Part shown: positions 3,909 through 46,490 of the stretch, in pieces
How positions within the stretch are numbered: position 1 is the first letter of the stretch
How the letters are laid out: every line of letters begins with the position of its first letter
NCBI GenBank assembly: GCA_009840135.1
Contig: VXOH01000159.1
Coordinates: 2,095 to 66,094, forward strand
Direction: 5' to 3'
DNA from: Chloroflexota bacterium
Lineage (GTDB): Bacteria > Chloroflexota > Dehalococcoidia > Lucifugimonadales > UBA3495
DNA: 64,000 bases
Translations under genes and position numbers: made by a program
The notes under the pieces: model-generated
Told to the model about the DNA's origin: nothing
What the model saw: the letters and a program-made list of their open reading frames with translations, nothing else
Databases searched by the model: none

Positions 3909-4520
3909 GTGACGGTGGCTGGACAGGACCAAACCGGTCAATCCGTAGCGGATAAGAGTGGCCTAGGCTCCAATGGCCACCACCCCGAGGTGTCAACCGA
4001 CCGTGTCTTGAGTTCGCCGGTGCTGGTGTTGAACCTCAACTATGTTCCCATAAACGTATCCACCGTTCGTCGGGCCATAATCCTCGTCAGCAAGGGCAAG
4101 GCCGAACTTCTGGAGAACCACCGGGGCGAAGTCCGGACCGTATCCGCCATCGTTGAAGCTCCCTCTATCATCCGACTTGTTTACCTGGTAAAACGCCCCT
4201 TCGCCCCCCGCAAGCTCTCCAAGAAGGAGATATTCCTGCGGGACCAGTACACCTGCCAATACTGCGGGAAGAAGACCCAGGAACTGACCCTGGACCATGT
4301 GGTGCCCCGGCGGCAGAAGGGAGCCCATACCTGGGAGAACGTGGTGGCGGCCTGCAGCCGTTGCAATCTACGCAAGGCAGGACGCACTCCCGAAGAGGCC
4401 AACATGCGGTTGAAGACCCAGCCCCGGGTGCCGCAACCCAACCCCTACCGCATCCTTCAGAACCGCACCATCCTCGACGAGTGGCGGCCTTACCTGCCGT
4501 GGACGGATGACGATGACTGA
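3909..4520 (+). CDS. HNH endonuclease family protein
   Basis: CQYCGKK...LTLDHVVPRRQKGAHTWENVVAACSRCNLRK is a CX2C...DH...N...CX2C HNH core. Confidence 0.8.
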   Translation: MTVAGQDQTGQSVADKSGLGSNGHHPEVSTDRVLSSPVLVLNLNYVPINVSTVRRAIILVSKGKAELLENHRGEVRTVSAIVEAPSIIRLVYLVKRPFAPRKLSKKEIFLRDQYTCQYCGKKTQELTLDHVVPRRQKGAHTWENVVAACSRCNLRKAGRTPEEANMRLKTQPRVPQPNPYRILQNRTILDEWRPYLPWTDDDD

Positions 4521-8887: not shown

Positions 8888-9265
8888 CTACTCATTAGGC
8901 AGGTGGCCCGTTTCCCGGGCCCACGCCTGCAGGCCCCGGCGGAAGGCCAGGGCGCCCATGGGGGCAATGACCGCCTGCAACGCTTCCAGAATTTCCGTCG
9001 GCGTTGCTCCGGACTCTAGGGCTACCCGCACGTGGGCCTGGATCTGCTCCACGTCGGCTTTCAGCGCCGCTTCCACCACAATCTGCAACAGTTCCTTGGT
9101 CTTGCGGTCCAGGGTACGCTGGCCGGTATAGGTCGCCTCGATAAACGCGCCGTAGGTCTTGGCCCATTCCAGGTCAACCTCGGCCATGATCCGGTGCATC
9201 TCCAGGGAATAGCCCCGGTTCTGGGCCTGGGAATCGAGAAATGCCTGGGTTTCGTCGGTGGACAT
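8888..9265 (-). CDS. carboxymuconolactone decarboxylase (AhpD-like) family protein
   Basis: TLDRKTKELLQIVVEAAL...HVRVALESGATPTEILEAL is the CMD-family pattern. Start at ATG 9265 behind AAGGAG. Confidence 0.6.
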   Translation of the reverse strand: MSTDETQAFLDSQAQNRGYSLEMHRIMAEVDLEWAKTYGAFIEATYTGQRTLDRKTKELLQIVVEAALKADVEQIQAHVRVALESGATPTEILEALQAVIAPMGALAFRRGLQAWARETGHLPNE

Positions 9266-9313
9266 TGTTTGCTCCTTTTGCTGGTCTGCAATTTCCAATG
9301 AAAATTGAAACAT

Positions 9314-9415
9314 ATCCCCTCTCCACTGGCGGGAGAGGGTTAAGGTGAGGGGGACTGGTCAATCTACAGCTTTCACCCCCATCCTATCCTTCCCCCATCA
9401 AGGGGGAAGGGACTT
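9314..9415 (+). repeat. composite double-hairpin interspersed repeat (copy A)
   Basis: CCCCTCTCC..GGGAGAGGGTTAAGGTGAGGGGG ... CCCCCATCCTATCCTTCCCCCATCAAGGGGGAAGG. Same architecture at 37864, 55467(-) and 57367. Confidence 0.8.
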
Positions 9416-9428
9416 ATGCAGAGATTCC

Positions 9429-10571
9429 CTAAAGGTTGTAATGGACCCGCGCCGCCGCCTGTTTCGGGTTGTCCTGCTGGAACAAGTCGGGATGCTTCCC
9501 CCGCTGCAGGGCCAGGTGGTAGGTGAATAGCTGCAGGGGCGCCACGCAGGCCAGGGGACTCCATATTTCCGGTACGGGCTTCATGGGAAAGCTGGCCGAT
9601 GCCAGGGAAGACAGGTCCTCGTCTCCGGCCTGGACCAGGGCCCACACCGGCGCTCCCGCTGCCGCTGAGGCCCGGGCTATGTCCAGCGACCGCTCATATC
9701 CCGGTCCTGGCGGGGCAATCAGCGTTACCAGGCAACTGTCGTCCAGGGAGCAGAAGGGACCGTGGAGCAGTTGCTCCACCTGCAAGCCCTCGCAGTCCGA
9801 GGCGCTGGTCTCCTTGATTTTCAACGCCACCTCGTAGGCGTTGCCGGTGTTGGGGCCCCAGCCCACGGAAATGAAACGCTGCCGGTTGGCAAACCGCTCC
9901 GCCACCGCCGCTATATCGGCCTCCCGGTCAGTAATGTCCGCAACAGCGGCGGGGACATCCAGCAGGCTGTCCTTCAATCTTGCCGCATCACCTGCTCCGC
10001 CGCCGCCACCAGCGGTAATACTGCCCGGAGCCTCGCCCGTAATTTCCCCCAGGTCCGAGGCCAGCAGGGCCAGCACCGTCAGCGCCGTAGTGTAGCTGAT
10101 GGTAAAGGCGGAGGACCGTTCGGGGGAGACGGTATGGAAGGATACATCGGCCACCTGCAGTCGGGGTCCGGGGTCGGTGGAGGTTACGGCCACGGTGTAG
10201 GCGCCCCGCTCCCTGGCCAGTTCCAGGGCCAGGAATGAGTAGGTCTTGGTGCCGCGGTGGCTGATGATGACAACCGCATCCTCCGGCCCCAGCGCCGGGG
10301 GGTAGCTGCAAAATTCGAAGGAGTGCCAGCCCTGGACCTGGATCCTCTGGCCGGCAAAGCGGCGGAACCAGTGTTCGGCTACCAGGACGGCGTGCCAGGA
10401 CGTTCCGATGCCGACGATGTAGATGTTCCGCCTGGATGCCAGGGACTCGGCAACTTCGCGGGCACCGACGGCGTGCCGTTCCAGCATCAGGGCCATGGCC
10501 TCGGGCTGGCCGGTTATGGCGTCGTACATGAAATAGGGGTGTTCCTGGCGGGTTTCCGGTGCAAGGGTCAT
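9429..10571 (-). CDS. SIS-domain sugar-phosphate isomerase/aminotransferase-like protein (GlmS isomerase-domain/AgaS/FrlB type)
   Basis: Two SIS-like halves. IYIVGIGTSWHA and VVIISHRGTK blocks. Confidence 0.65.
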   Translation of the reverse strand: MTLAPETRQEHPYFMYDAITGQPEAMALMLERHAVGAREVAESLASRRNIYIVGIGTSWHAVLVAEHWFRRFAGQRIQVQGWHSFEFCSYPPALGPEDAVVIISHRGTKTYSFLALELARERGAYTVAVTSTDPGPRLQVADVSFHTVSPERSSAFTISYTTALTVLALLASDLGEITGEAPGSITAGGGGGAGDAARLKDSLLDVPAAVADITDREADIAAVAERFANRQRFISVGWGPNTGNAYEVALKIKETSASDCEGLQVEQLLHGPFCSLDDSCLVTLIAPPGPGYERSLDIARASAAAGAPVWALVQAGDEDLSSLASASFPMKPVPEIWSPLACVAPLQLFTYHLALQRGKHPDLFQQDNPKQAAARVHYNL

Positions 10572-13386: not shown

Positions 13387-13463
13387 CGGGGCGTGGCGCA
13401 GCCCGGAAGCGCACCTGCATGGGGTGCAGGGGGTCGCCGGTTCAAATCCGGCCGCCCCGACCA
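13387..13463 (+). tRNA. tRNA-Pro (anticodon GGG), CCA encoded
   Basis: Hand-folded cloverleaf: acceptor CGGGGCG/CGCCCCG, D-arm GCGC-AGCCCGGAA-GCGC, anticodon arm CCTGC-ATGGGGT-GCAGG, T-arm GCCGG-TTCAAAT-CCGGC, discriminator A, CCA. Confidence 0.9.
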
Positions 13464-18522: not shown

Positions 18523-19596
18523 GTGTATAATGCCCCTGTGGTATCTAGCAACTACATACAAGTTACCCGGCAAGCGGTTAGCTGTCCATATTGTGGCCAC
18601 TCCAAGATAGCGAAGTGGGGCAGCACGAAAGGCGGCAACCAGCGTTACCGGTGTTCCTCGAAAGAGTGCGGTCGGTCGTTCCTCGACACCGGGGCATTGA
18701 ACGGTTACCGGGTTCCCGCCGAGCAAATCGGTGCGGCAATCGGAATGTACTACCGGGGGATGTCCTACAAGCAAATCGGCGAGCAAATGGCCGACGCCTA
18801 CGATATGGACGAACCCGACAAGCGGGCAATTTATGAATGGGTGAGAGACCATTCGGAGGTTGCCGCCGAAGCAATGAAGGATTACCCGGCCCATACATCG
18901 GGCAAGTGGGTTGCCGACGAAATGCAGGTCAAGGTTGGCGGAGAGAACCTCTGGAACTGGAACGTAATGGACGCCGATACAAGGTACGTGCTGGCATCTC
19001 ACCTTTCCCCCAACCGAGACCAGATGGCAGCCGTTGCCGTGATGGAGAAGGCCGCCGCCGCCGCCGATGGGCCACCCAAGTCAATCACCACTGACAAGCT
19101 GCGCAGTTACGGGCCGGCCATTAAGAAAGTCTTTCCCCAAGCCGAGCATATCCAGTCCGAGGGACTGAAGGCCGAGATAAACAACAATATGTCGGAACGG
19201 CTGCAAGGAACCTTCCGGCAACGGGAAAAGACGTTGCGGGGTCTGGAAGGTCTGGAATCGGGGCAACGTTACCTTGACGGCTGGGTAGTCAATTACAATC
19301 TCTTCAAGGAACACGAAGGCGTTGATTACCAGACCCCGGCGGAAATGGCAAAGGTGAAGCCGCCCTTCACGGAATGGGCGGACGTGGTGAGAAATGCGCC
19401 GGCCTTGCAGGAAAGCAGGAAGGGCAAAGCGACTCCCTCGCTGGCCGATGTTGCCGACAAAGCGGCCCGGCCGAGCCCGGCTACCGCCCCAAAGACTACC
19501 TTTTTCATTCCCGATTCAACGGCCCGGCGCAGGCCGAAAGGCGAGAGGGAATCGGACGACCCGGACGACTTGCCTTTCTTATTCCGGCCCCGGTGA
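18523..19596 (+). CDS. DDE transposase, IS6/IS26-like with N-terminal zinc finger
   Basis: CPYCGH...RYRCSSKEC finger. DDE blocks ADEMQVKVGGENLWNWNVMDADTRYVL, SITTDKLRSYGPAI, NNNMSERLQG. Exact start uncertain (GTG 18523 or 18538). TTGAGT-15-TATAAT lies in or next to IRL. Confidence 0.7.
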   Translation: MYNAPVVSSNYIQVTRQAVSCPYCGHSKIAKWGSTKGGNQRYRCSSKECGRSFLDTGALNGYRVPAEQIGAAIGMYYRGMSYKQIGEQMADAYDMDEPDKRAIYEWVRDHSEVAAEAMKDYPAHTSGKWVADEMQVKVGGENLWNWNVMDADTRYVLASHLSPNRDQMAAVAVMEKAAAAADGPPKSITTDKLRSYGPAIKKVFPQAEHIQSEGLKAEINNNMSERLQGTFRQREKTLRGLEGLESGQRYLDGWVVNYNLFKEHEGVDYQTPAEMAKVKPPFTEWADVVRNAPALQESRKGKATPSLADVADKAARPSPATAPKTTFFIPDSTARRRPKGERESDDPDDLPFLFRPR

Positions 19597-20425: not shown

Positions 20426-21939
20426 CTATTGCCGCCTTCTCCTCCGCCGGCCCTCGGCCCGGCCCATCCTCAAGTTAGTGTCATCCTTCATCCAACCGTT
20501 GGCCCGGTTGTGTGTCTGTAGCCCTATCAGCGTGTACCTATCTCGCTTTTCCTTGTTGCACGGTGGGCAGAGCAGAGTAAGGTTTTCGTAAGCGTCAGTG
20601 CCGCCCTGGGAGCGGGGATTGATGTGGTCCACTTCCAATACCCTGGTATCAAACTGGTAGTTTGCCCCGCAACCCTGACAGAAAGGCCCAATGTCGGCCA
20701 GCAAGCGGTTATGGTGGGTTCGGGGCGGGGGAAGGCGCAAAGCGCGGCCCGTTGGAGTTCGGAGGGTCAGCGTGGCCGGCTCCCCGCCGTCTGTGCGCCG
20801 GGGTGGGCGAGTAAGGTAATGCACTTCGGGATTGGAGTCCACCAGCAATTGCCGGTTTTCCTGCATCCGGCGAATGACTTGACCATGCGCCCCGTCCCAA
20901 ATGTCCATGCCAACCCACTGCCGGCCCGAAAGCTCGGCGGCAACCGGGGTTGTGGCGCAACCACAGAACGGGTCTAAAACCAAGTCGCCGGGGTTGCTGC
21001 TGGCCTGAATGATTCTTTCGTAGAGGGGCAAGGGTTTCTGGGTGGGGTAGCCTGTATCCTCATTGCCTTTGGTCTCATTGATGTCGTCCCACAGTGTATT
21101 CCTAATCCGCCCCGCTTTTGGGCGGATTTTGCGCCACAACTTCCCGTCTTCCTCCACCAGCTCCCCGGCATTGTCCAGCTCCACCATTCGCTTCTGTCCA
21201 ACTTTCCAGCCTGAAGGATGGGGGGGGTGAATCCTCGGTATTCGTAGCACAAGTTAGGGCGTGGACTTGCGCTTGGCCGATTGTAGGCTAGGTCAAGGTA
21301 GTAAGGCCCGGTAGAGTCTTCGTGCCGAAAGGCCCGCATATAGTCGTGGGCGTAAGGTTCGAGTACACGGGTTTGGTCAAAGAATGAATCATCGGTCTTG
21401 CCGTAAAACAGCAGGGTATCGGTGTTGGAGTTGTACCGCCTTGCCTTGAATTGGGAACCTTTGAATCCCCGCCGGGTTCGTTTCCACACAATCGCATTTC
21501 GGAAGTTCTGCCGCCCAAAGATGGCGTCCAATAGGCACTTGCCCCACGCCCCTGCGGTATCATCCATGTGAAGGTAAATGCTGCCGTCCTCGGCAAGCAC
21601 CCGGTGCATTTCCAGCAGCCGGACACCCAGCCAACAAAGGTAGGCGGCCATATCATCACCATAAGCAGTCTTGGCAGCAGTAATGACCGCCCACACTTCC
21701 GGCTGGTCTCTCTGAATGGCAATCAGCCAATCATCGTGAACGTCCTCATCCCACCGCCAGCGGTCTTGAAACTGGGCGCCACTGGCCAGACTGTCCGGGG
21801 TAGCATGAAAATCCCGTCCTTTGTTGAAGGGCGGGTCGGTGGCAATTAGGTTGACCGTCCCGGAGTTCATTCCCCGGAGAAACTCAAGGTTGTCTCCGTG
21901 GTAAAGAGTGCGGTTATCGAAGTTGCGGGTTGGCGGCAA
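20426..21939 (-). CDS. beta-class N6A/N4C DNA methyltransferase fused to a C-terminal HNH nuclease, interrupted by a frameshift at a C8 tract
   Basis: ORF 21939-20974 carries motif IV (IATDPPFNKG). ORF 21250-20426 carries GYPTQKP, motif I (VLDPFCGCATT) and HNH (DHINPRSQGG...NLTLLCPPCNKEK). The frames switch at G8 (21220-21227). Confidence 0.75.
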
Positions 21940-21941
21940 AA

Positions 21942-21976
21942 TAGTCTCCCCAGTTCTGCTAAACTGGGGAGACTAT
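21942..21976. promoter_or_regulatory. perfect 15-bp-arm palindrome covering the methyltransferase RBS
   Basis: ATAGTCTCCCCAGTT-CTGCT-AACTGGGGAGACTAT. The minus-strand GGGGAG RBS and TTG start (21939) lie in or next to one arm. Confidence 0.45.
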
Positions 21977-22016
21977 AGCACAGGGGCCAACACTAACTCA
22001 ACGGAACCCCTCCAGC

Positions 22017-22930
22017 AGCGCATCCGCGACCACGGCGATTCCCTGCGCCAATACGAAGCTCGCACTCGCGTGGCCCTGATTGATCCATTGCTGACGGCGC
22101 TGGGATGGGACGTGGCGAACCCCGGGTTGGTTACTGCGGAGTACCAAGTCGGTGGTGGTAGAGCGGACTATGCGCTACTGTCTGATGATGGGAACCCTAA
22201 GGCTTTCGTTGAAGCCAAGCGCTTGGGTGAACCATTAGAGGCAATAAAGTATCAGGAGCAAGTGTTTACCTACGCATTGATCCAGCAGGTTAGATATGCG
22301 GGTTTGACTGATGGCAACTTGTGGGTTCTCGACAATGTTGCGGAATTTTCCGGCGGTGAGCGCCGCAAGCTGGAAGTTTCAATCGCTCTAGAACCAGCAT
22401 TTCAATGTGCTCTGAAGCTCTTGCTGCTTTGGCGGCCCAACCTTGCCTCGGGGAGGCCGGTGGAGGCAAATAAGCCGATTTTGTCCGATGGCCCTAGTTC
22501 GGAACTTGACAATGGTGGTGGCGCAACAGTTTGCCCTCCTCCCCCTCCACCCTCTGGAGATTGGAAACCTCTTGGCATACTACAGCATGTAACCGGTGGT
22601 CCCCAACCCACAGCAATTCGGTTCTCCGACGGTGAAGAGCGGGATACGTCCTATTGGTGGCACATCCTATTTTATACTGCAGAGTGGTTGGTGCAGAATG
22701 GCAAGCTCACACCTCAACATTGCCCAGTTAAATTGACTAATGGGCAGAGATATACTGTCAATCACCAGGCTGTCCACGCCGACGATAAGCCTTTCACTGC
22801 TCCCCGACCCTTGTCTAATGGCCTTTTCTGTGAAAGCAACTTCAACGCTGTTAACAACTTGACCCACACTAAGCGGCTGTTAGAGTATTTTGAAGAAGAC
22901 TTGGAAACAATCCTTCTCCGATTCAGTTAG
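22017..22930 (+). pseudogene. 3' part of the disrupted restriction-endonuclease-like gene (HSDR_N/Mrr-type PD-(D/E)xK N-domain plus unknown C-domain)
   Basis: QRIRDHGDSLRQYEARTRVALIDPLLTALGWDV...GGGRADYALL...AFVEAKRLG matches the type I R-subunit N-terminal nuclease pattern. In frame with the 18455 fragment once the element is removed. Confidence 0.7.
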
Positions 22931-26778: not shown

Positions 26779-27000
26779 CTCCCCCTCCTCCCCTGCAAAA
26801 ACTTGCCCTCAATTTCACGTTAACATATAAACGCCTATATTTCCTACGATGCACGCAAGCGTTTTGGTCGTTCCGATATCACTAAAGGAGGCACGTTTAC
26901 CTGTTTGACAGCCCCTGGGGGCAGGGTTAGGCTTTATTCAGTATGTGGTAACTATGGCAGGGGTCGGATTTACCGGTGTACCAAGCCCGGAGCATTTGCT

Positions 27001-27336
27001 ATGAAGCTAAGCAATGACGAACAGGCATGGCTGGACGAGTATCGGGTTACGTTGGACAAGGAATACCCGGGCCTGGTGGAAGATATAGTGATCTTTCGTT
27101 CGGACGAAGGCCGGTTTTACCTCCCGGAATACTCATTGAACACCGTCGTTATCCTGAAAAAAGGCGACCGACGAACCGGTAAAGACGTCGAGTTTATGGG
27201 GCACTATTTGGCAGTGTTGTCAGAAGCGTTCCCCTTTATTTGGGCCTACACTCAGGACGAATGGAAACTTCATAGGCGAAACGAAACCCTTCCGTACAAA
27301 GGGGATGGATTGTCTGTATGGTCACGCCAATCTTAG
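27001..27336 (+). CDS. degenerate minimal nucleotidyltransferase (MNT)-like protein, putative HEPN partner
   Basis: Position and size fit an MNT antitoxin. The expected FGS...SDxD blocks read FRS...SLNT (VEDIVIFRSDEGRFYLPEYSLNTVVIL). Confidence 0.4.
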   Translation: MKLSNDEQAWLDEYRVTLDKEYPGLVEDIVIFRSDEGRFYLPEYSLNTVVILKKGDRRTGKDVEFMGHYLAVLSEAFPFIWAYTQDEWKLHRRNETLPYKGDGLSVWSRQS

Positions 27337-27734
27337 ACAGGGAATGGCGTCGAGCTCAAGAATGTCTAGGCGCCGCTAGCCTTTGCCGGGATCACGGTTT
27401 CCATGCCGATGCCGTTTCTCGTGCCTATTACGTCATTATGCACGCCGCTAAGGCGGCGCTGGCTTATTGCATTGCTACTAGAGTTGAGGCTGGGGAGGAT
27501 GTTCTGCCTCAATCTCACGATGGCGTAATGAACCGATTTGGCTTACGTTTAGTAAACTCCGGAGATGTTGACCGGATTTGGGCAGCTGTTCTTCGTGAGA
27601 TGTATCAAAAGCGCATTCTTGCTGACTACGACGTTAGTACTTCCCTTACCGAAAACGACTCGCGTGAAGCGGTTGAACGGGCTACTTCTTTCCTGACCCG
27701 TATGCAGTTGCTGTGGGGAGGCGCCCAAGCCTGA
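27318..27734 (+). CDS. HEPN-domain protein
   Basis: SRAYYVIMHAAKAAL, QSHDGVMNRF and RILADYDV blocks are typical of the HEPN family. Overlaps the upstream ORF by 19 nt. Confidence 0.65.
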   Translation: MVTPILDREWRRAQECLGAASLCRDHGFHADAVSRAYYVIMHAAKAALAYCIATRVEAGEDVLPQSHDGVMNRFGLRLVNSGDVDRIWAAVLREMYQKRILADYDVSTSLTENDSREAVERATSFLTRMQLLWGGAQA

Positions 27735-30563: not shown

Positions 30564-31151
30564 CTATTCAACCTCGGGGTTTCTGTTCGGAAGCGGCAGC
30601 CAAATTACTTCACGGCTGGCGATAAGCTCCTCTACCTGGTTCTCGTTTCTTACGCTGGCTACCGCCGCGTGGCATGGTTCCTGGGTAACCAATGTTATGA
30701 ACGCGGCGTTCTGTATAGCCCTGGTGGTGTCGCGGGCCGAAGCAGTGTATGAAATTTCAGTGGCGATGTAAGCGGGGGCGCCATCCCGGTCGGTGACTCG
30801 CATTACCAGGTCCGCCGCTACAAAGCTCAAACGTTCGCCGCCTGCCAGGCGATTTCCTGCCAGCACGCGCAGCTGCTCTTTGTCCAGGATTTCCTCCAGC
30901 TTGTACCCCAGGAATTCTGGCAGGTCAGCGGCGCCTTCTATTACCTGGGTTCGCATGTAGTAGCCTTTGAGGTCGCCTATGTCGCTACTTATCCGGTCCA
31001 GGCGGCGGCTGGTGTTGTCCCTGAATCTGCTGAAATCTTCGGGCATATTCTGCAGGCCGCTGCTCAGGATCCTGCTTCTGAGAGCTTCCGCCCATTCCGG
31101 CTTCTCATCAAGAACATTCAGGAGTTCCTCGAAGGTATTGATGGTGGTCAT
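30564..31151 (-). CDS. hypothetical protein
   Basis: 195-aa ORF with a helical N-half. The C-half ADLVMRV...YIATEISYTASARD is loosely PD-(D/E)xK-like. No firm motif. Confidence 0.3.
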   Translation of the reverse strand: MTTINTFEELLNVLDEKPEWAEALRSRILSSGLQNMPEDFSRFRDNTSRRLDRISSDIGDLKGYYMRTQVIEGAADLPEFLGYKLEEILDKEQLRVLAGNRLAGGERLSFVAADLVMRVTDRDGAPAYIATEISYTASARDTTRAIQNAAFITLVTQEPCHAAVASVRNENQVEELIASREVIWLPLPNRNPEVE

Positions 31152-31296
31152 TGGGTAGCCCTCCTTGTCTCTGGCGGCCCTGCGGCCATTATACTCTGCA
31201 TCCGGTTTCCCTGGTTATCAGCAAGGGTAGTCCCTTTGGAGGCTCATAGACTGCCGGCAAGCCACCGGTGTCCCCTGTGATACAATTTCCGCAGAT

Positions 31297-32112
31297 ATGG
31301 CTCAAAACAGTAACGCCACCATCATCGCCAATTCCCCCTCAGCTCTCTCCCCAGGGCAGTACCTGGGGCCGGACGCATTGCTGCGGTTGCTGTCCAGCAC
31401 GTCTCCTGATCCGCCCGACTCCGGCCACGAGGATATCGGCACTCTCTGCCTGACTCCCGGGGGACTGTCCCGCTGGCCCGAAGCAAGGGATGCCGCCTTG
31501 CGGGAATGGCGCAGTTTCCTGGGCCCGGTTCTGGACGGCCCCGGCGGTGACTCCCTCCTGAAGTCTGACACCGGCCTGGTGGCATTGCGTGTCGGTGACC
31601 GCGGTCTGGCCGTGGCGCCGCCCTTTCCCGTGAAAAGAGAATCGGCCGTCGAAACGTGGGATGCCGGGCACCTGCAGGAATTGCTGGTTGCTGAATACAC
31701 CGTGGGGGTGGTGCTGCTCCGCCTGGGCCGCTACATGGTGGCCGTGTTTCGCGGGACCCAACCGGTGGTGACCAAGACCGACACCCGCTACGTAAAGGGC
31801 AAGCACCACGCCGGCGGCACCTCCCAGCTGCGGTTCAAGCGCATTCGGGAGGGGCAGATGCGCAAGCTGTTCGACGAGGCCTGCCAGGTAGTGGGCAGCC
31901 GCTTCGAGCCCCATGACCGGGAGTTGGACTACATACTGCTGGGCGGCGAGAAGTTGACCCTCAACGGATTTCTGAAGGTGTGCCCCTACCTGCAGCGACG
32001 GCAGGATATCATCCTGGACCGGCGCCTGAACATACGAGACCCCAAGCGCGACACCCTGGACACCGTGTCCGGTATGCTGCGCCAGAGCCGGGTATGGGCT
32101 GTCGCCCCGTGA
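31297..32112 (+). CDS. Vms1/VLRF1-like (eRF1-fold) peptidyl-tRNA hydrolase family protein
   Basis: VGVVLLRLGRYMVAVF...KGKHHAGGTSQLRFKRIREGQMRKLFDEA...YILLGGEK. The GG(S/T)SQ catalytic-Gln loop and flanking blocks match the VLRF1 domain. Possible extended -10 (TGATACAAT, 31278-31286) about 10 nt upstream of the ATG. Confidence 0.6.
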   Translation: MAQNSNATIIANSPSALSPGQYLGPDALLRLLSSTSPDPPDSGHEDIGTLCLTPGGLSRWPEARDAALREWRSFLGPVLDGPGGDSLLKSDTGLVALRVGDRGLAVAPPFPVKRESAVETWDAGHLQELLVAEYTVGVVLLRLGRYMVAVFRGTQPVVTKTDTRYVKGKHHAGGTSQLRFKRIREGQMRKLFDEACQVVGSRFEPHDRELDYILLGGEKLTLNGFLKVCPYLQRRQDIILDRRLNIRDPKRDTLDTVSGMLRQSRVWAVAP

Positions 32113-32155
32113 ACAGTGAGATTACAACATCCGTGCAAAATCAGTTCGGTGAAAC

Positions 32156-34954
32156 TTGAACAGCAACCTGGATAGTGCGGCTTTGACCGACGGCTTTGGC
32201 GGCTTTGAACAGTCCCTGCACCTGCTGGAATTCGACCAGATAAGGCACAGGCTGGCCGGCTTTGCCCGCACCCAGCTGGGCAAGGACCTGGCCCAGACCC
32301 TGGAGCCGGTCGCCGATGCCCTGGAAATCGGTTCGCGCCTCCAGGAAACTGACGAGGCCCGTTTCTTCCTGGACTCCGGCGGCAGTCTGGAGTTCGGGCC
32401 CGGCGCCGACCTGCGCGAGTACGTCCACCGCGCCATGCTGGGCGGCTCACTGCGGGGCGAAGAGCTGCACGAAATTCGCCTGTTGGCCGGGGCTGCCAGC
32501 TTCAGCCGGGACGCTCTCCACCGCCGGGAGGACCTGCCCCTGCTGTCCGGCATAGCCTCCAACATCCCCAACCTGTCGGGCCTGGAGCAGGCCATTGCCC
32601 GGGCCATCAGCCCCGCCGGAGAGATCCTGGACGACGCCAGTCCCGACCTGCGCCAGTTGCGCCGCGACTCCAGGTCAGCCTATCAGCAACTTAACGAGGT
32701 GATGCAGCGCAGCCTCCGCCGCTACCAGCGGCGCGCCGTCGTCCAGGAACCTATAATCACCCAGCGCAATGGGCGGCTGGTGCTTCTGATTAAGGCCGAG
32801 CACAAGTCCCAGACACCGGGCATCGTCCACGACGTCTCCGACAGCGGGGCCACCGTCTTCATTGAGCCCCTGCCTGCCATTGAGACGGGCAACCGCTGGC
32901 GCGAGACCCGCCTGGCCGAGGAACGGGAAGAGGAGCGGGTGCTCCGGACCCTGGCCTCCCAGGTAGGGGAGGCCGGCGACGACCTGCAGCTGGCCCTGGA
33001 CTTGCTGGCCCGGCTGGACCTGGCCATGGCCAAGGGCCGTTACTCCGCCGACCGGCGGGCGGTGGCGCCCTCCGTAAAGGCCGTAGCAACATCCTTCGAC
33101 AAGCCCCGGCCCGGGGAGAGTCGAGGCACAAGACACATCAGGGGTGATGAGGAAAATAGCCCTCCACCTTCCCCTTCTCCGTCCGCTTCCGCCTCTGCCC
33201 CCGCTCCCGCTTCTCCCCCCGCTCGTGGTGAGCCCGTCGAACCACGCCTCCGCATCGTCGGGGCCCGCCATCCCCTGCTCACCGACCGGGTGGTGCCCAT
33301 CAGCCTGGACCTGGGCGGTGGCAACCGGGTGATGGTAATTACCGGCCCCAATGCCGGTGGCAAGACGGTAGCCCTCAAGACCGTCGGCCTGCTGGCCCTC
33401 ATGGCTCATGCCGGCCTGCACGTGCCCGCCGAAGCCGCTGATTTTCCACTGCTGGACGGTATTTTTGCCGATATCGGCGACCAACAGAGCATTGAGCAGT
33501 CGTTGTCTACCTTCAGTTCTCATATCCAGAATTTGCGGTCCATTCTGGACCGGGTTACCTCGGACTCCCTGGTATTGATTGACGAGCTGGGAACCAGCAC
33601 CGACCCCGAGGAGGGAGCCGCCCTGGCCCAGGCCATCCTGGGGCGCCTGCGCTCCCTGGATGTGATGACCATCGCCACCACCCACCACCGGGGCGTGGCC
33701 CGCTACGTGCAGGAACAGTCCGGCATGGTAAATGCCAGCGTTGACCTGGACCCGACCACCCTGGAGCCCACCTACCGGATTACCCTGGGCCTGCCGGGTC
33801 GCAGCTATGCCCTTACCATCGCCGACCGCCTGGGCCTGGATGCGGAAATCCTGGATGAGGCCCGCTCCCTTATCGCGCCCTCCCAGCGGGCCACCGACGA
33901 TCTCGTACAGGAGTTGCAGGAAGAACGGGCGGTGGTGGCCCGTCTGAGGCAGGAATCCGAGGATCTGTTGTCCCGCGCCCGCGTCCAGCAGGCCGAGACC
34001 GAGGCCAGGCTGGCCACCGTGGAGGCCTCCCGCCTGGAGCTGGTGGAAGAAGCCCGACAGGACTTGCAGAAACGCATCGGCGGGCTGCTGACCCAGCTGC
34101 AGCAGGCCGAGCGCGCCGCCGAACATGCCGAGGCGGAGCAGGCGGCCCGCCGATTGATGCGCCCGTCCCCTGGCGCTCCTGCCCGTGACCCTGCCCGTGA
34201 CCCTGGGAGAGATTCGGGCAGCAGTTCCAACCGGGGCTTGGGCAGAAACCCCGGCAATACTCCCGGAGCAGAGCGTTTTCGCGCCTACCAGGAGGATTTG
34301 GCCCAGTTCCAGAAAGAATTGAGCTCCACCCAGTGGGAACCGATAGAGGTGGAACGCCCCCCCTGGCAGCAGGAGTTAAGTAGCGGGGATCGCGTATACA
34401 TCAGGGGCATCCCCCGTCCCGTGGAGGTGATCTCGCCCCAGGACGAGGATGAGCATATCGAGGTGCTGCTGGGTACCATGCGGGCCCGGATTCCCGTTTA
34501 TCAGCTGGAACGCCCCGCCGACTCCGGCCTGCCCCAGGAGTCCGGACAGACTCAGGGAGCCGGACAGCCTGTGGGCACGGCGGGCCAGCGACCCGGGACC
34601 GAATCCCTTGAATCATTGCCGCCTGCGGGAGGATTGGACCCCAATTCTCCCGGGGTGCGGTTCCGTCACAACCGCGACGCCGGAGTCTATTACCGCCGTC
34701 CCTCCCTGCGGCAGGTCAAGACCGACCTGGACCTGCGGGGTAATCGGGTGGACGAGGCCCTGGACAAGGTGGAAACTCTCCTCAACGAAGCTGCCCTCAG
34801 CGGCGTGCCTGAAGTACGCATTATCCACGGCCAGGGCACCGGCGCCCTGCGGCGTGCCGTACGGGAGTTCCTCCGCGGCCACCCCCTGACCTCATCATCG
34901 GGCCCCGATCACGAGACCTCCAACGACGGGGTCACCATAGTCGAGCTGAAATAA
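32156..34954 (+). CDS. mutS2: endonuclease MutS2 (MutS domains, ABC ATPase, KOW-like region, C-terminal Smr)
   Basis: LLEFDQIRHRL start, ARHPLL, Walker A ITGPNAGGKT, LIDELGTSTDP, Smr block LDLRGNRVDEAL...IIHGQGTGALR. Two low-complexity inserts. Confidence 0.9.
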   Translation: MNSNLDSAALTDGFGGFEQSLHLLEFDQIRHRLAGFARTQLGKDLAQTLEPVADALEIGSRLQETDEARFFLDSGGSLEFGPGADLREYVHRAMLGGSLRGEELHEIRLLAGAASFSRDALHRREDLPLLSGIASNIPNLSGLEQAIARAISPAGEILDDASPDLRQLRRDSRSAYQQLNEVMQRSLRRYQRRAVVQEPIITQRNGRLVLLIKAEHKSQTPGIVHDVSDSGATVFIEPLPAIETGNRWRETRLAEEREEERVLRTLASQVGEAGDDLQLALDLLARLDLAMAKGRYSADRRAVAPSVKAVATSFDKPRPGESRGTRHIRGDEENSPPPSPSPSASASAPAPASPPARGEPVEPRLRIVGARHPLLTDRVVPISLDLGGGNRVMVITGPNAGGKTVALKTVGLLALMAHAGLHVPAEAADFPLLDGIFADIGDQQSIEQSLSTFSSHIQNLRSILDRVTSDSLVLIDELGTSTDPEEGAALAQAILGRLRSLDVMTIATTHHRGVARYVQEQSGMVNASVDLDPTTLEPTYRITLGLPGRSYALTIADRLGLDAEILDEARSLIAPSQRATDDLVQELQEERAVVARLRQESEDLLSRARVQQAETEARLATVEASRLELVEEARQDLQKRIGGLLTQLQQAERAAEHAEAEQAARRLMRPSPGAPARDPARDPGRDSGSSSNRGLGRNPGNTPGAERFRAYQEDLAQFQKELSSTQWEPIEVERPPWQQELSSGDRVYIRGIPRPVEVISPQDEDEHIEVLLGTMRARIPVYQLERPADSGLPQESGQTQGAGQPVGTAGQRPGTESLESLPPAGGLDPNSPGVRFRHNRDAGVYYRRPSLRQVKTDLDLRGNRVDEALDKVETLLNEAALSGVPEVRIIHGQGTGALRRAVREFLRGHPLTSSSGPDHETSNDGVTIVELK

Positions 34955-34991: not shown

Positions 34992-35783
34992 TTGGCAGAA
35001 GAACCTTTGACCCCGTTGCAGCGACGCCAGAGGGCGCTGGTCAGGTTGGAAGAAGGTAGGCAGGCCCTGCGAAAATCCCTGGAAGACCTGGACGCCGAGG
35101 ATGCTTTTCTCGGGTCTCGCTGGTCGGTGTGGGAGGTGCTGAAGCACCTGGACGCCGAGAGTTTCGTCGAGGCCCTGGAGAAGATTGCCGTCGGCGAGAT
35201 GGAGATGCTTCCTCCCTTCACCAGCCGCGAAGACAGGTTGCGCCAGGACATTGAGCACCTGGAGACGACTTATGACCGGATGCGGAACGTCATCGCCGGC
35301 CTCACCGAGGAACAACTGCTCCAGCCCGTTACTCCTCCCAATCCCGTCAACTCCTTCCCCGGCCTGTCCATGCTGGAACTGGTGGAACGGTCCTCCGGAC
35401 ACGCCGCCTCTCACGCCCGGCAAATCGAGCTTACCCGCAAGTACGTGGCCGAGTTTAACGCCAGGGAGAAGTCCGTCACCGTAATTGCCCTGGGCGATGG
35501 CGCCCAGGATTCGGTGCCCATGCGGGCCAGAGAGCTAATTGCCTTTGCCGACTTTACGGCCGGAGACGCCGCCGCCCTGGACCTGGTGCGTCCCTGGATT
35601 CGGGGCCTGGAGGCGGAAATCCGGGCGGACAATACCGAGGAAGTGGTATCCCGCATGGCCCGCGAGGCCCGCGCCGGTCTCTGGACCGTTATCTGCGTTC
35701 GGGGAAACAACCCCGAAGGAGATTGTCCTGAGTTGATGAACCTGGCTCGGCGGTACTGCGACAAGGTGGTGGTTCTGCGCTGA
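34992..35783 (+). CDS. DinB-like domain protein with uncharacterised C-terminal domain
   Basis: WSVWEVLKHL...ELVERSSGHAASHARQI has four-helix DinB-type His spacing. The C-half is unassigned. Confidence 0.4.
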   Translation: MAEEPLTPLQRRQRALVRLEEGRQALRKSLEDLDAEDAFLGSRWSVWEVLKHLDAESFVEALEKIAVGEMEMLPPFTSREDRLRQDIEHLETTYDRMRNVIAGLTEEQLLQPVTPPNPVNSFPGLSMLELVERSSGHAASHARQIELTRKYVAEFNAREKSVTVIALGDGAQDSVPMRARELIAFADFTAGDAAALDLVRPWIRGLEAEIRADNTEEVVSRMAREARAGLWTVICVRGNNPEGDCPELMNLARRYCDKVVVLR

Positions 35784-44684: not shown

Positions 44685-46490
44685 TTAAGGCCGGTAAATC
44701 AACACCGACCGTTCCGGCTCCCGGCCTCGGCTGGTGGAGGCCAGGTTGAACCGCTGGGCCAGCAAATGCTGCAGACGCCGTACGTAGGCTCGTTGCGGGT
44801 TCAGCTGCACGCTGAATTCGCCTCCCATAACCCGCTGGGCCGCATCTTCGGCCTCCAGCATGGCCTGGTCCAGGGTTTCCCTGGAGCCCGTCTCTGACCC
44901 CGCCTCGCCCCGCTGCCGTCCGCCCCGCACCTGAATCCCCTGCTCTTTCGCCAGAGCTCTCAAAAAGTCCATCACCTGGGGCATTGTATTCTTGCGCAGA
45001 ACGTAAACGGGCGTGCCCGTGGCCTCGGCAGAACGCACCAGTTGGGCGCCCCGGCGGTAGTGAGTCTTGGTGGTCAATACCAGCGAAGCCCGTCGCAGTT
45101 CATTAACCACGTTCACGTTCAGTCCCATCTCGGCCTGGGCTGTTTCCAGCTTGTCGCGGCTTACACCGAACAGAAATACCTGGGCCTCCAGGGTACGGCC
45201 GTCGCCGCCCTCGCCGGGGTTGAGAGTTCCATTGCCTCCGGCGATCTCTCTCCCGTCCTGCCCCAGGCCGTCCGCGCCGCCATCACCCGGAAGCTCATCC
45301 ATGAAGCCGCGCTGGTACATCGCCTGGGGTACAGCCGGCTGTTCCATGTTCCGGTCTGGATTCCGGTCCAGGTTCCTGCCCTGGCGGCGGTCCGAACGTC
45401 GCCCTCCGTTCCCGTAATCGCGGTTACGGCCGCCAAGATCCTGGGTCCAGGGCGCCGGCGGGTCTGCGTTGGGGCGCGGGTCGCCCTGCCGTTCCACTAC
45501 CTCCCCCGCCTCGTCCATGCTGCGGATAACCGGCAGGATCGGGTAGCCCCGCAGCCACTGGTCAACCACCTGGGCCACGCCGTCGTGGACGGCCACCTGT
45601 TCCCAGCTCTGGATTTCCACCACCACGTCAAAGGTAGGCGGCGCCTTCCGTTCCAGCACCGTCTTCTGGGTGCCCCGGTACCGAGCTTCCTGGTCGCCCA
45701 GCGTCACCGACTGTATGCCGCCCACCAGGTCCGAAAGGGTTGGGTTAAGCACCAGGTTGTCCAGGGTGTTGCCGTGGGCGGTGGCAATCAACTGAACGCC
45801 CCGCTCCGCGATGGTTCGGGCGGCGGCGGCCTCCTCTTCAGTGCCCATCTCGTCGATGATAATCACCTGGGGCATGTGGTTTTCCACCGCTTCTATCATT
45901 ACCGCGTGCTGGCGGGTGGGTGTTGCAACCTGCATCCGGCGGGCGTGGCCTATGGCCGGATGTGGCACGTCGCCGTCGCCGGCAATTTCGTTGGACGTGT
46001 CCACGATAACCACCCGCTTGCGGGCTTCGTCGGCCAGGACCCGGGCCACCTCCCGCAGCATGGTGGTCTTGCCCACGCCGGGCCGCCCCAGCAGCAGGAT
46101 GTTCTTGTTGGCGAAGGCCAGGTCTTCGATGATTTTGATGGTGCCAAACACTGCGCGGCCGGCACGGCAGGTTATTCCCACCACCTGCCCCTTGCGGTTG
46201 CGAATGGCGGAGATGCGGTGCAGGGTACGCTCCATGCCCGCCCGGTTGTCCTCGCCGAAATCTCCTATCTGGCGGACCAGGTAATCCAGGTCGTCACGGC
46301 TGACCTCGCGGTCGTCAAGGATCACGTCCCCGGAAGGGAACCGGGCTTCCGGCAAGCGGCCCAGGTCCAGCACCACCTCCAGCAGGTCGGTCAGGTTGTC
46401 CTGCTCCAGCAGGCTTTCTTTGACCCGCGGGGGAAGTATCTCCATCAGGCGTTCCATTTCTTCCTGGACCAGCTCTTGCGCCGCTACCAA
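44685..46490 (-). CDS. AAA ATPase with C-terminal R3H domain (Ycf45/SpoIIIAA-like)
   Basis: LLLGRPGVGKTTML Walker A, VIIIDEMG Walker B, C-terminal R3H/Jag-like block (QRAYVRRLQHLLAQRFNLASTSRG). Confidence 0.7.
   Translation of the reverse strand: MVAAQELVQEEMERLMEILPPRVKESLLEQDNLTDLLEVVLDLGRLPEARFPSGDVILDDREVSRDDLDYLVRQIGDFGEDNRAGMERTLHRISAIRNRKGQVVGITCRAGRAVFGTIKIIEDLAFANKNILLLGRPGVGKTTMLREVARVLADEARKRVVIVDTSNEIAGDGDVPHPAIGHARRMQVATPTRQHAVMIEAVENHMPQVIIIDEMGTEEEAAAARTIAERGVQLIATAHGNTLDNLVLNPTLSDLVGGIQSVTLGDQEARYRGTQKTVLERKAPPTFDVVVEIQSWEQVAVHDGVAQVVDQWLRGYPILPVIRSMDEAGEVVERQGDPRPNADPPAPWTQDLGGRNRDYGNGGRRSDRRQGRNLDRNPDRNMEQPAVPQAMYQRGFMDELPGDGGADGLGQDGREIAGGNGTLNPGEGGDGRTLEAQVFLFGVSRDKLETAQAEMGLNVNVVNELRRASLVLTTKTHYRRGAQLVRSAEATGTPVYVLRKNTMPQVMDFLRALAKEQGIQVRGGRQRGEAGSETGSRETLDQAMLEAEDAAQRVMGGEFSVQLNPQRAYVRRLQHLLAQRFNLASTSRGREPERSVLIYRP

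Follow-up and report, generated by a model that had tools for sequence, protein, structure and literature searches.

A stretch of 64,000 nt from a Dehalococcoidia genome (Chloroflexota bacterium, assembly GCA_009840135.1, contig VXOH01000159.1, positions 2,095 to 66,094 of the forward strand; hereafter the window, with position 1 its first letter) carries a gene of the acVLRF1 family, related to Vms1/ANKZF1 and here called VLRF1, directly followed by mutS2. The pair is an operon-like, conserved adjacency that does not depend on gene order. An original prediction, made from the sequence without database searches, had taken the two genes for a ribosome-rescue pair, and this interpretation is supported here as a candidate, with function read from homology and gene context. 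The features of the locus are listed below.

31274..31287, + strand: conserved extended -10 element CCTGTGATACAATT, from a cross-species alignment of upstream DNA
31297..32112, + strand: acVLRF1-family (Vms1/ANKZF1-like) gene, 271 amino acids (aa), ATG start, from PF18859 and fold matches
residues ~18-120 of VLRF1, + strand: N-terminal alpha/beta domain, from the AlphaFold2 (AF2) model
residues ~125-270 of VLRF1, + strand: RNase H-fold domain resembling the eRF1 M domain, from the AF2 model and Foldseek
31813..31827, + strand: GGxSQ putative catalytic loop, G173-G174-T175-S176-Q177, from alignment A1 (24 sequences)
32113..32155, + strand: VLRF1-mutS2 spacer, 43 nt (70 nt with the TTG 32183 start)
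32156..34954, + strand: mutS2 (rqcU-type), 932 aa, TTG start, from TIGR01069
33332..33871 (residues 393-572), + strand: MutS domain V ABC-type ATPase, PF00488, E 4.7e-35
34385..34498 (residues 744-781), + strand: MSSS (KOW/SH3-like) domain, PF20297
34727..34954 (residues 858-932), + strand: Smr domain with DLR and HGQG motifs, PF01713, E 1.2e-20
34992..35783, + strand: candidate third gene (DinB-like), 263 aa, 37 nt downstream of mutS2

The VLRF1 open reading frame (ORF) matched the Pfam acVLRF1 family (PF18859) above the curated threshold, scoring 85.6 bits (cut-off 27.1); the match spans residues 135-266 and takes in profile positions 2-129 of 130, with weaker Pfam matches to eRF1_2 and baeRF_family10. 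A search for homologs returned 811 proteins, some of which, including close ones, are named "Vms1/Ankzf1 family peptidyl-tRNA hydrolase" by NCBI. The same start methionine is found in homologs, and no VLRF1-MutS2 fusion occurs among those listed, the longest of which measures 358 aa. At the sequence level, a PDB search with VLRF1 returned aRF1 and eRF1 only, with archaeal aRF1 at E 1e-5 and no match to Vms1. We also built an AF2 model of VLRF1 on 24 homologs (predicted local distance difference test, pLDDT, 85; predicted TM-score, pTM, 0.82), for which Foldseek returned aRF1 and eRF1 from the PDB with E values down to 1.7e-10 (aRF1), with further matches to Balon, a bacterial eRF1-like hibernation factor, and Dom34/Pelota. 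The eRF1 M domain (2hst) aligned to the model with a root-mean-square deviation (rmsd) of 5.0 over 119 columns, and yeast Vms1 on the 60S subunit (6r84_R) aligned with a query-length TM-score of 0.42 and an rmsd of 4.5 A over 192 columns; 6r84_R gave the best query-length TM-score and, among the long VLRF1 alignments (at least ~190 columns), the lowest rmsd. Hidden Markov model searches (Pfam and NCBIfam), together with the AF2 model and Foldseek, bear out the placement of this ORF in the VLRF1/eRF1 fold made in the original prediction.

Outside the catalytic domain, residues 18-105 of VLRF1 (31348..31611) align by profile with the stop-codon-recognition N domain of archaeal aRF1, and no counterpart of the NIKS motif is found at the aRF1 NIKS position of this alignment. 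Judged from the profile, the N-terminal part looks like a degenerate eRF1 N domain, not an unrelated extension. The C-terminal eRF1 domain is absent, the two domains account for all 271 aa, and the Pfam matches are of the acVLRF1/eRF1 type only, with none to a Rei1-type zinc finger, ankyrin repeats, VIM, or a treble clef. The loop KGKHHAGGTSQLRFKRIREGQ (residues 167-187) contains the GGTSQ motif, whose GG aligns on the GG of the aRF1 GGQ. In alignment A1, GGTSQ and the subsequent R179, R182, and R184 are invariant, and the GGTSQ part of the putative catalytic-Gln loop that had been noted from the sequence lies at residues 173-177. Model confidence (pLDDT) is low across the loop and residues 168-172 are disordered, as expected of a flexible loop. 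Across the loci of the window clade described below, GGTSQ is kept in roughly 75 of 80.

The downstream gene was identified as mutS2 by TIGR01069 (NCBIfam; 727 bits, cut-off 400). Four nucleotides separate TTG 32156 from an upstream Shine-Dalgarno-like GGTGA, and gene calls on identical public contigs use an alternative in-frame start, TTG 32183, giving a protein of 923 aa. A same-strand mutS2 just downstream of VLRF1 had thus been correctly predicted, whereas the distance of 44 nt is corrected to 43 nt, or 70 nt with the alternative start. Window MutS2 is colinear with the Bacillus subtilis MutS2 chains of ribosome complexes 7qv3, 8qpp, and 8r55, to which residues 20-306, 365-647, and 854-932 align, and neither it nor the clade members searched gave a Pfam match to the mismatch domains MutS_I and MutS_II. 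Its Walker A motif (GPNAGGKT, identical in 70/70 clade MutS2) and Walker B motif (LVLIDELG, motif residues invariant in alignment A4) align to those of B. subtilis MutS2. The MSSS match is weak in the window protein (20.9 bits against a cut-off of 26.8); the domain was found in 19 of 21 clade MutS2 (best E 1.5e-6), and the region is highly conserved in alignment A4. In the Smr domain, the clade keeps DLRG in 66/70 and HGxG in 70/70 proteins. The window Smr has DLR in place of the DxH nuclease motif of active Smr endonucleases (SmrB/Cue2 type), and by these motifs it is of the B. subtilis MutS2 (collision-sensor) type, not the DxH nuclease type. Of the domains originally predicted, therefore, the ATPase, the KOW-like region, and the Smr domain itself are confirmed, and only the description of the last as a nuclease is not. 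MutS2 of B. subtilis splits collided ribosomes, and its DLR-type Smr domain recruits the protein to them with no cleavage of mRNA (Park et al. 2023). By analogy with that protein alone, window MutS2 would bind collided ribosomes and split them at the expense of ATP.

Three low-complexity inserts rich in Pro, Ser, Ala, and Gly were also observed in mutS2 (~33086..33244, 34145..34285, and 34520..34690). They fall between the aligned domains, are lineage-specific and not conserved in the clade consensus, and make window MutS2 932 aa long compared with 785 aa in B. subtilis.

To describe the distribution of the pair, one genome per species (GTDB) was scanned, returning 80 loci, all from Dehalococcoidia, SAR202, or Chloroflexota metagenome-assembled genomes, with VLRF1 proteins 47-74% identical to that of the window. 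mutS2 follows VLRF1 on the same strand in 75 of the 78 loci having downstream DNA, with a median spacer of 56-73 nt over these 75 loci, 66-67 of which have spacers of 150 nt or less and at least 12 a spacer of 3 nt. The ORF families at the two positions flanking the pair were then counted as a measure of flank turnover, giving at least 18 different families immediately 5' of VLRF1 and at least 26 immediately 3' of mutS2, and the window's own upstream genes are conserved in at most 12 loci. Because the flanking families differ so widely, the pair must have persisted through many rearrangements. When the loci were instead grouped with single linkage on the flanking genes they share, nearly all of them chained into one uninformative group. 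An apparent synteny with enoyl-CoA hydratase genes (54 loci) was set aside, as these were 30-37% identical and taken as paralogs.

Exceptions to the adjacency are explained by local events (L079 and L014, along with L021, L022, and L060, which are rearranged). In L079, a 463-aa ORF (8992-10383, - strand), transposase-like by reading with no family-library search, lies between VLRF1 and mutS2, leaving a gap of ~1.8 kb and suggesting that the pair was split by an insertion sequence. L014 has a small gene inserted between the two (8965-9699), the N-terminus of which resembles, by eye and unaligned, a 195-aa ORF upstream of VLRF1 in the window (30564..31151, - strand). The latter has no family in Pfam, NCBIfam, PADLOC, or PHROGs, and this ORF and the L014 insert might represent a small mobile or repeated gene.

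A distant clade carries the two genes in reverse order, with mutS2 directly upstream of VLRF1 in all three representatives looked up (L172:123-3229, L177:2540-5762, and L174:3-1357), two of which are named Dehalococcoidia. Identity to the window proteins is 32-36% for VLRF1 and 35-38% for MutS2, and at the MutS2/VLRF1 junctions the stop codon either overlaps the start codon (ATGA) or is separated from it by 1 nt. Since two opposite orders occur in divergent lineages with junctions of the coupling type, inherited synteny alone is hard to uphold. Conservation of the adjacency beyond the window genome, on which the original prediction had staked its reading, is therefore found both in the 75/78 loci with short gaps and, in reverse order, elsewhere. 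Shared strand, short spacers, the lack of an internal terminator-like site, and an arrangement kept across species all mark the pair as operon-like. Complete Dehalococcoidia chromosomes with this arrangement include OZ244136.1, OZ219949.1, OY761558.1, and OZ247428.1. Elsewhere in the family, P0123 (L168:5001-8319) has VLRF1 followed by MutS2 after a 92-nt gap and carries the loop GGRSQ; the Smr domain of its MutS2 keeps a nuclease-type DLH, so the Smr active site varies among linked MutS2. In L180:4138-7701 (GCA_009692665.1, Dehalococcoidia), a GGWSQ-type VLRF1 is flanked on one side by rsmI (16S rRNA methyltransferase) and on the other by a small RH3-domain gene and then metG, a setting of translation genes without MutS2.

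Upstream of VLRF1, TGATACAAT at 31278-31286 comprises TG (31278-79) and TACAAT (31281-86), with 10 nt to the VLRF1 ATG. Among the 14 closest loci, CCCCTGTG[A/T]TACAATTTC keeps the same position relative to the ATG in 13 (-19) and is shifted to -18 in the remaining one, with DNA 5' of the element that is unrelated between them; more distant loci carry TGGTACAAT at -22 to -33. The original hint of an extended -10 is thus upheld by a motif kept at a near-fixed distance in 14/14 closest loci. At two mismatches or fewer, the element is the only match in the window, and two other TGNTACAAT sites (40642 and 55605) were dropped, as they are not sensibly placed relative to start codons. The promoter escaped a scan with the sigma-70 consensus because no -35 element precedes VLRF1, and the ATG also lacks a Shine-Dalgarno sequence. 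As the -10 hexamer ends 10 nt before the ATG, the 5' leader would be only a few nucleotides long, which supports a near-leaderless VLRF1 transcript. No terminator-like site was found between VLRF1, mutS2, and the DinB-like gene, and we infer that VLRF1 and mutS2 are co-transcribed.

The DinB-like gene encodes a DinB_2 four-helix-bundle domain with invariant H52, D54, H137, and H141, and a C-terminal domain that, from its model and fold matches, folds like the N-terminal half of tetrapyrrole/RsmI-type methylases; no profile similarity was detected between this protein and the RsmI of L180. Only 390 homologs were returned, named "DinB family protein". In 52 of the 80 loci, the gene lies no more than 8 kb from the VLRF1-MutS2 pair. 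Two arrangements occur, since it follows mutS2 in the window and its close relatives but is placed upstream of VLRF1 in divergent orientation in the more distant ones, and a single inversion would interconvert them. Its membership in the VLRF1-MutS2 system is uncertain.

The acVLRF-1 family, with the motif GGxSQ, was defined computationally and occurs in Chloroflexi (Burroughs and Aravind 2019). The same study called prokaryotic VLRF-1 standalone and independent of other components of ribosome-associated quality control (RQC), regarded Gln-less aeRF-1 families as likely non-catalytic ribosome binders, and proposed that the long VLRF-1 loop suits a subunit-free peptidyl-transferase center; MutS and Smr go unmentioned in it. 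Park et al. (2023), which shares comparative genomicists as authors, makes no mention of Vms1 or gene neighborhoods. A report of the VLRF1-MutS2 link was not found in the openly searchable literature (subscription-only papers lay outside the search), and the earlier statement that such an operon lacks experimental demonstration holds in the literature searched. New relative to published work is that a bacterial Vms1-type factor is coupled to MutS2 in a conserved operonic arrangement, whichever of the two genes comes first.

Surveys of RQC components differ in their totals for Chloroflexota. In the phylum totals of Takada et al. (2024), RqcH occurs in 25.7% of 1306 Chloroflexota (missing in ~74%), RqcP/YlmH in ~0%, and RqcH in 0% of Actinomycetota. 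Callan et al. (2024) recorded mutS2 in 35/41 and rqcH in 26/41 Chloroflexota genomes, neither gene in Actinobacteriota, and mutS2 in 1781/1956 and rqcH in 404/1956 genomes of the FCB group. Among the annotated ORFs of the 64-kb window, none encodes an NFACT (RqcH) or S4 (RqcP/YlmH) protein, and no tmRNA was detected in it. In B. subtilis RQC, the general enzyme Pth performs release after Ala-tailing by RqcH/RqcP, and no dedicated release factor is known.

Set against these systems, window VLRF1 shares with Vms1/ANKZF1 (eVLRF-1) an RNase H-fold catalytic domain of the VLRF-1/eRF1 type, a long Gly-x-small-Gln loop followed by conserved Arg residues, a presumed lack of stop-codon reading, and a proposed action on large-subunit peptidyl-tRNA after splitting. 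Unlike Vms1/ANKZF1, it has only 271 aa, without the Rei1 zinc finger, ankyrin, VIM, and treble clef modules, carries GGxSQ instead of GxuQ, falls by profile in acVLRF-1 and not in the bVLRF-1/eVLRF-1 lineage, and has MutS2 as its gene partner in place of Cdc48, Ltn1, and Rqc2. Likeness to B. subtilis RQC resides in MutS2 (architecture, Walker motifs, KOW-like domain, and Smr with DLR and HGxG) and in the presumed first step, the splitting of collided ribosomes. In contrast to the Pth release of B. subtilis, the window has a Vms1-type gene in the mutS2 operon, and in Chloroflexota RqcP/YlmH are essentially absent and RqcH is present in ~26-63% by survey. The Pfam match, GGxSQ, and the conserved Arg residues in the following helix agree with the acVLRF-1 family as described; however, the window clade is operonic with mutS2 and not stand-alone, the VLRF1 N-terminus aligns with the aRF1 N domain and is not simply a "short extension", and, unlike the motif definition, approximately a quarter of family representatives lack the Gln. 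As with eRF1/Pelota and ABCE1, an eRF1-fold A-site factor is paired with a subunit-separating ABC-type ATPase, and catalytic (Gln) and non-catalytic versions both exist. The two ATPases differ in ABC lineage, MutS2 being of the MutS family, and unlike eRF1/Pelota, VLRF1 lacks the C domain that contacts ABCE1 and GTPases, the pairing here being one of genes.

Taken as a whole, we give an even chance to the proposal that the pair is a co-transcribed ribosome-rescue module, in which collided ribosomes are first split by MutS2 and VLRF1 afterwards frees the nascent chain, and we infer every biochemical step of this module by analogy. The extended -10 promoter would drive a near-leaderless mRNA encoding VLRF1, MutS2, and, in this lineage, probably the DinB-like protein. 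By homology to B. subtilis MutS2, MutS2 would recognize collided ribosomes via its KOW-like and DLR-type Smr domains, and its ABC ATPase would split the lead ribosome into 30S and 50S-peptidyl-tRNA. VLRF1, by homology to Vms1/ANKZF1 and eRF1, would bind the vacant A-site side of the 50S-peptidyl-tRNA complex, where its long GGTSQ loop would enter the peptidyl-transferase center and free the nascent chain. To do so, VLRF1 may either hydrolyze the ester bond or, as has been argued for Vms1, cut the 3' CCA end of the tRNA. VLRF1 would then constitute a dedicated termination step, a role filled by Pth in B. subtilis.

Several observations weigh against this sequence of splitting and release. Foremost is the catalytic loop, as GGSSA replaces GGxSQ in three VLRF1-to-MutS2 loci (L051, L076, and L078) and all three MutS2-to-VLRF1 representatives have HRQGGSSANRF or a close variant, without the Gln. 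The acVLRF1 family comprises about 1000 cluster representatives; among 149 newly returned 50%-identity representatives (P0121-P0269), 39, some of them fragments, lack GGxSQ, the usual variants being GGSSA and GGSSS. In class-1 release factors, Gln substitutions keep partial activity and Gly substitutions do not. For the Gln-less MutS2-linked lineages, either the Gln is dispensable or the VLRF1 partner is non-catalytic. It is mainly because the Gln is not universal that we grade splitting followed by release no higher than even, and that we treat as possible, though doubtful, an arrangement resembling eRF1/Pelota with ABCE1. Here VLRF1 would be the A-site partner of MutS2 on the intact stalled 70S ribosome, releasing the peptide where it has the Gln and serving as a non-catalytic wedge where it has not, both forms helping subunit separation, with release occurring before or during splitting and not afterwards on the 50S subunit. 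The fold that VLRF1 shares with eRF1, Pelota/Dom34, and Balon, three factors that occupy the A site of complete ribosomes, agrees with such a partner, as do the profile alignment of the N-terminal domain with the aRF1 N domain and the ABC-type ATPase of MutS2. Tight coupling of the GGSSA variants to MutS2 (ATGA overlap) also fits a role without catalysis, consistent with the view of Gln-less aeRF-1 families as likely non-catalytic ribosome binders (Burroughs and Aravind 2019). Retention of GGTSQ in nearly all window-clade loci, however, argues for catalysis there, no such partner is needed by B. subtilis MutS2 to split disomes in vitro (Park et al. 2023), the long loop was proposed for a subunit-free peptidyl-transferase center, and VLRF1 is without the C-terminal eRF1 domain for contact with a GTPase or ATPase.

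The reach of the link also tells against release after splitting, since only certain Dehalococcoidia clades, and not the family as a whole, show the link to MutS2. A second scan, of metagenomes and with distant family members as seeds, gave 80 loci of a clade that is at least in part SAR202; mutS2 adjoins VLRF1 in only 2 of these 80, and the conserved neighbors are short-chain dehydrogenase/reductase (SDR) and RpiB genes. Five looked-up representatives (P0466, P0430, P0127, P0134, and P0136) have no adjoining mutS2, and in P0241 VLRF1 lies between rsmI and metG. All linked loci belong to a single class, Dehalococcoidia, and their conservation is for this reason partly shared ancestry. The NCBIfam model NF041024 (acVLRF1_NCBI) scored window VLRF1 at 105.5 bits, below its cut-off of 125, which by sequence sets the window clade apart as a divergent branch relative to that model, and no experimental work on bacterial VLRF1 or acVLRF1 was found in the literature searched. 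The adjacency may, then, be inherited synteny with no functional coupling, and VLRF1 a stand-alone specialized release factor. This would agree with the single class, with the extended synteny around the pair within subclades, and with the several acVLRF1 clades that stand alone, in keeping with the "standalone" statement of 2019. We nevertheless judge it unlikely, given that the pair outlasts turnover of both flanks (the ORF families counted above), that the window's upstream genes are so seldom conserved, that spacers shrink to 3 nt, and that the two opposite gene orders, at 32-38% protein identity, come with translational-coupling overlaps.

A role in DNA recombination has also been published for MutS2 and likewise counts against a ribosomal function, recombination suppression through Smr nicking having been described for Helicobacter and Thermus. 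Were MutS2 to act on DNA in this manner, VLRF1 and the DinB-like gene would form part of a stress or DNA-damage cluster, an idea to which the PDB name "Endonuclease MutS2" and the DinB-family third gene lend some color. We consider it very improbable, as the conserved partner of MutS2 has a translation-factor fold and window MutS2 combines a DLR-type Smr with a KOW-like domain, the uS10-binding domain of the B. subtilis protein. In addition, proteins of the DinB_2 type (Pfam DinB_2, MST) are four-helix bundles that bind metal and usually act as thiol transferases, not as DNA enzymes, and no defense-system or phage family was matched convincingly.

The remaining genes of the window are those of ordinary SAR202-type metabolism (luciferase-like monooxygenases, CoA transferases, enoyl-CoA hydratase, etc.), and GC content around the VLRF1-mutS2 operon is typical of the window. 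An anti-phage defense reading was rejected, with PADLOC giving marginal generic matches to the ATPase region (E ~4e-4, 18 bits), as was a phage origin, with no PHROGs match and typical GC. Other features in the window, among them scattered genes of mobile or defense type, are as follows.

3909..4520: HNH endonuclease
13387..13463, + strand: tRNA-Pro(GGG), the only RNA gene detected in the window
18523..19596: IS240-type DDE transposase
20974..22930: N6/N4 DNA methylase beside an ORF with a below-cut-off HSDR_N match
26905..27734: HEPN-domain gene, overlapped by a 143-aa ORF without a family match
44685..46490, - strand: 601-aa protein with a SpoIIIAA-like AAA ATPase, a PTPase-like domain, and a C-terminal R3H nucleic-acid-binding domain

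In bacterial RQC, MutS2 acts as the splitter and RqcH, together with RqcP or YlmH, carries out tailing, but a dedicated release factor has so far been lacking, and VLRF1 is a testable candidate for that step. More broadly, though we regard this as rather improbable in its full extent, VLRF1 proteins may be the missing dedicated partners of MutS2 in bacteria without RqcH/RqcP tailing, the operon a self-contained, RqcH-independent quality-control module, the Gln-less clades Dom34-like non-catalytic partners of MutS2 (cf. the eRF1/Pelota-ABCE1 split), and the DinB-like/half-methylase protein a third component. The VLRF1-MutS2 operon provides the first genomic-context evidence on the role of bacterial VLRF1 proteins, which have been orphan predictions since 2019, and suggests how lineages with MutS2 but without RqcH handle 50S-peptidyl-tRNA. 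The Gln-less MutS2-coupled clades offer a natural experiment on the need for the Gln, and the finding bears on the evolutionary origin of the release step of eukaryotic RQC.

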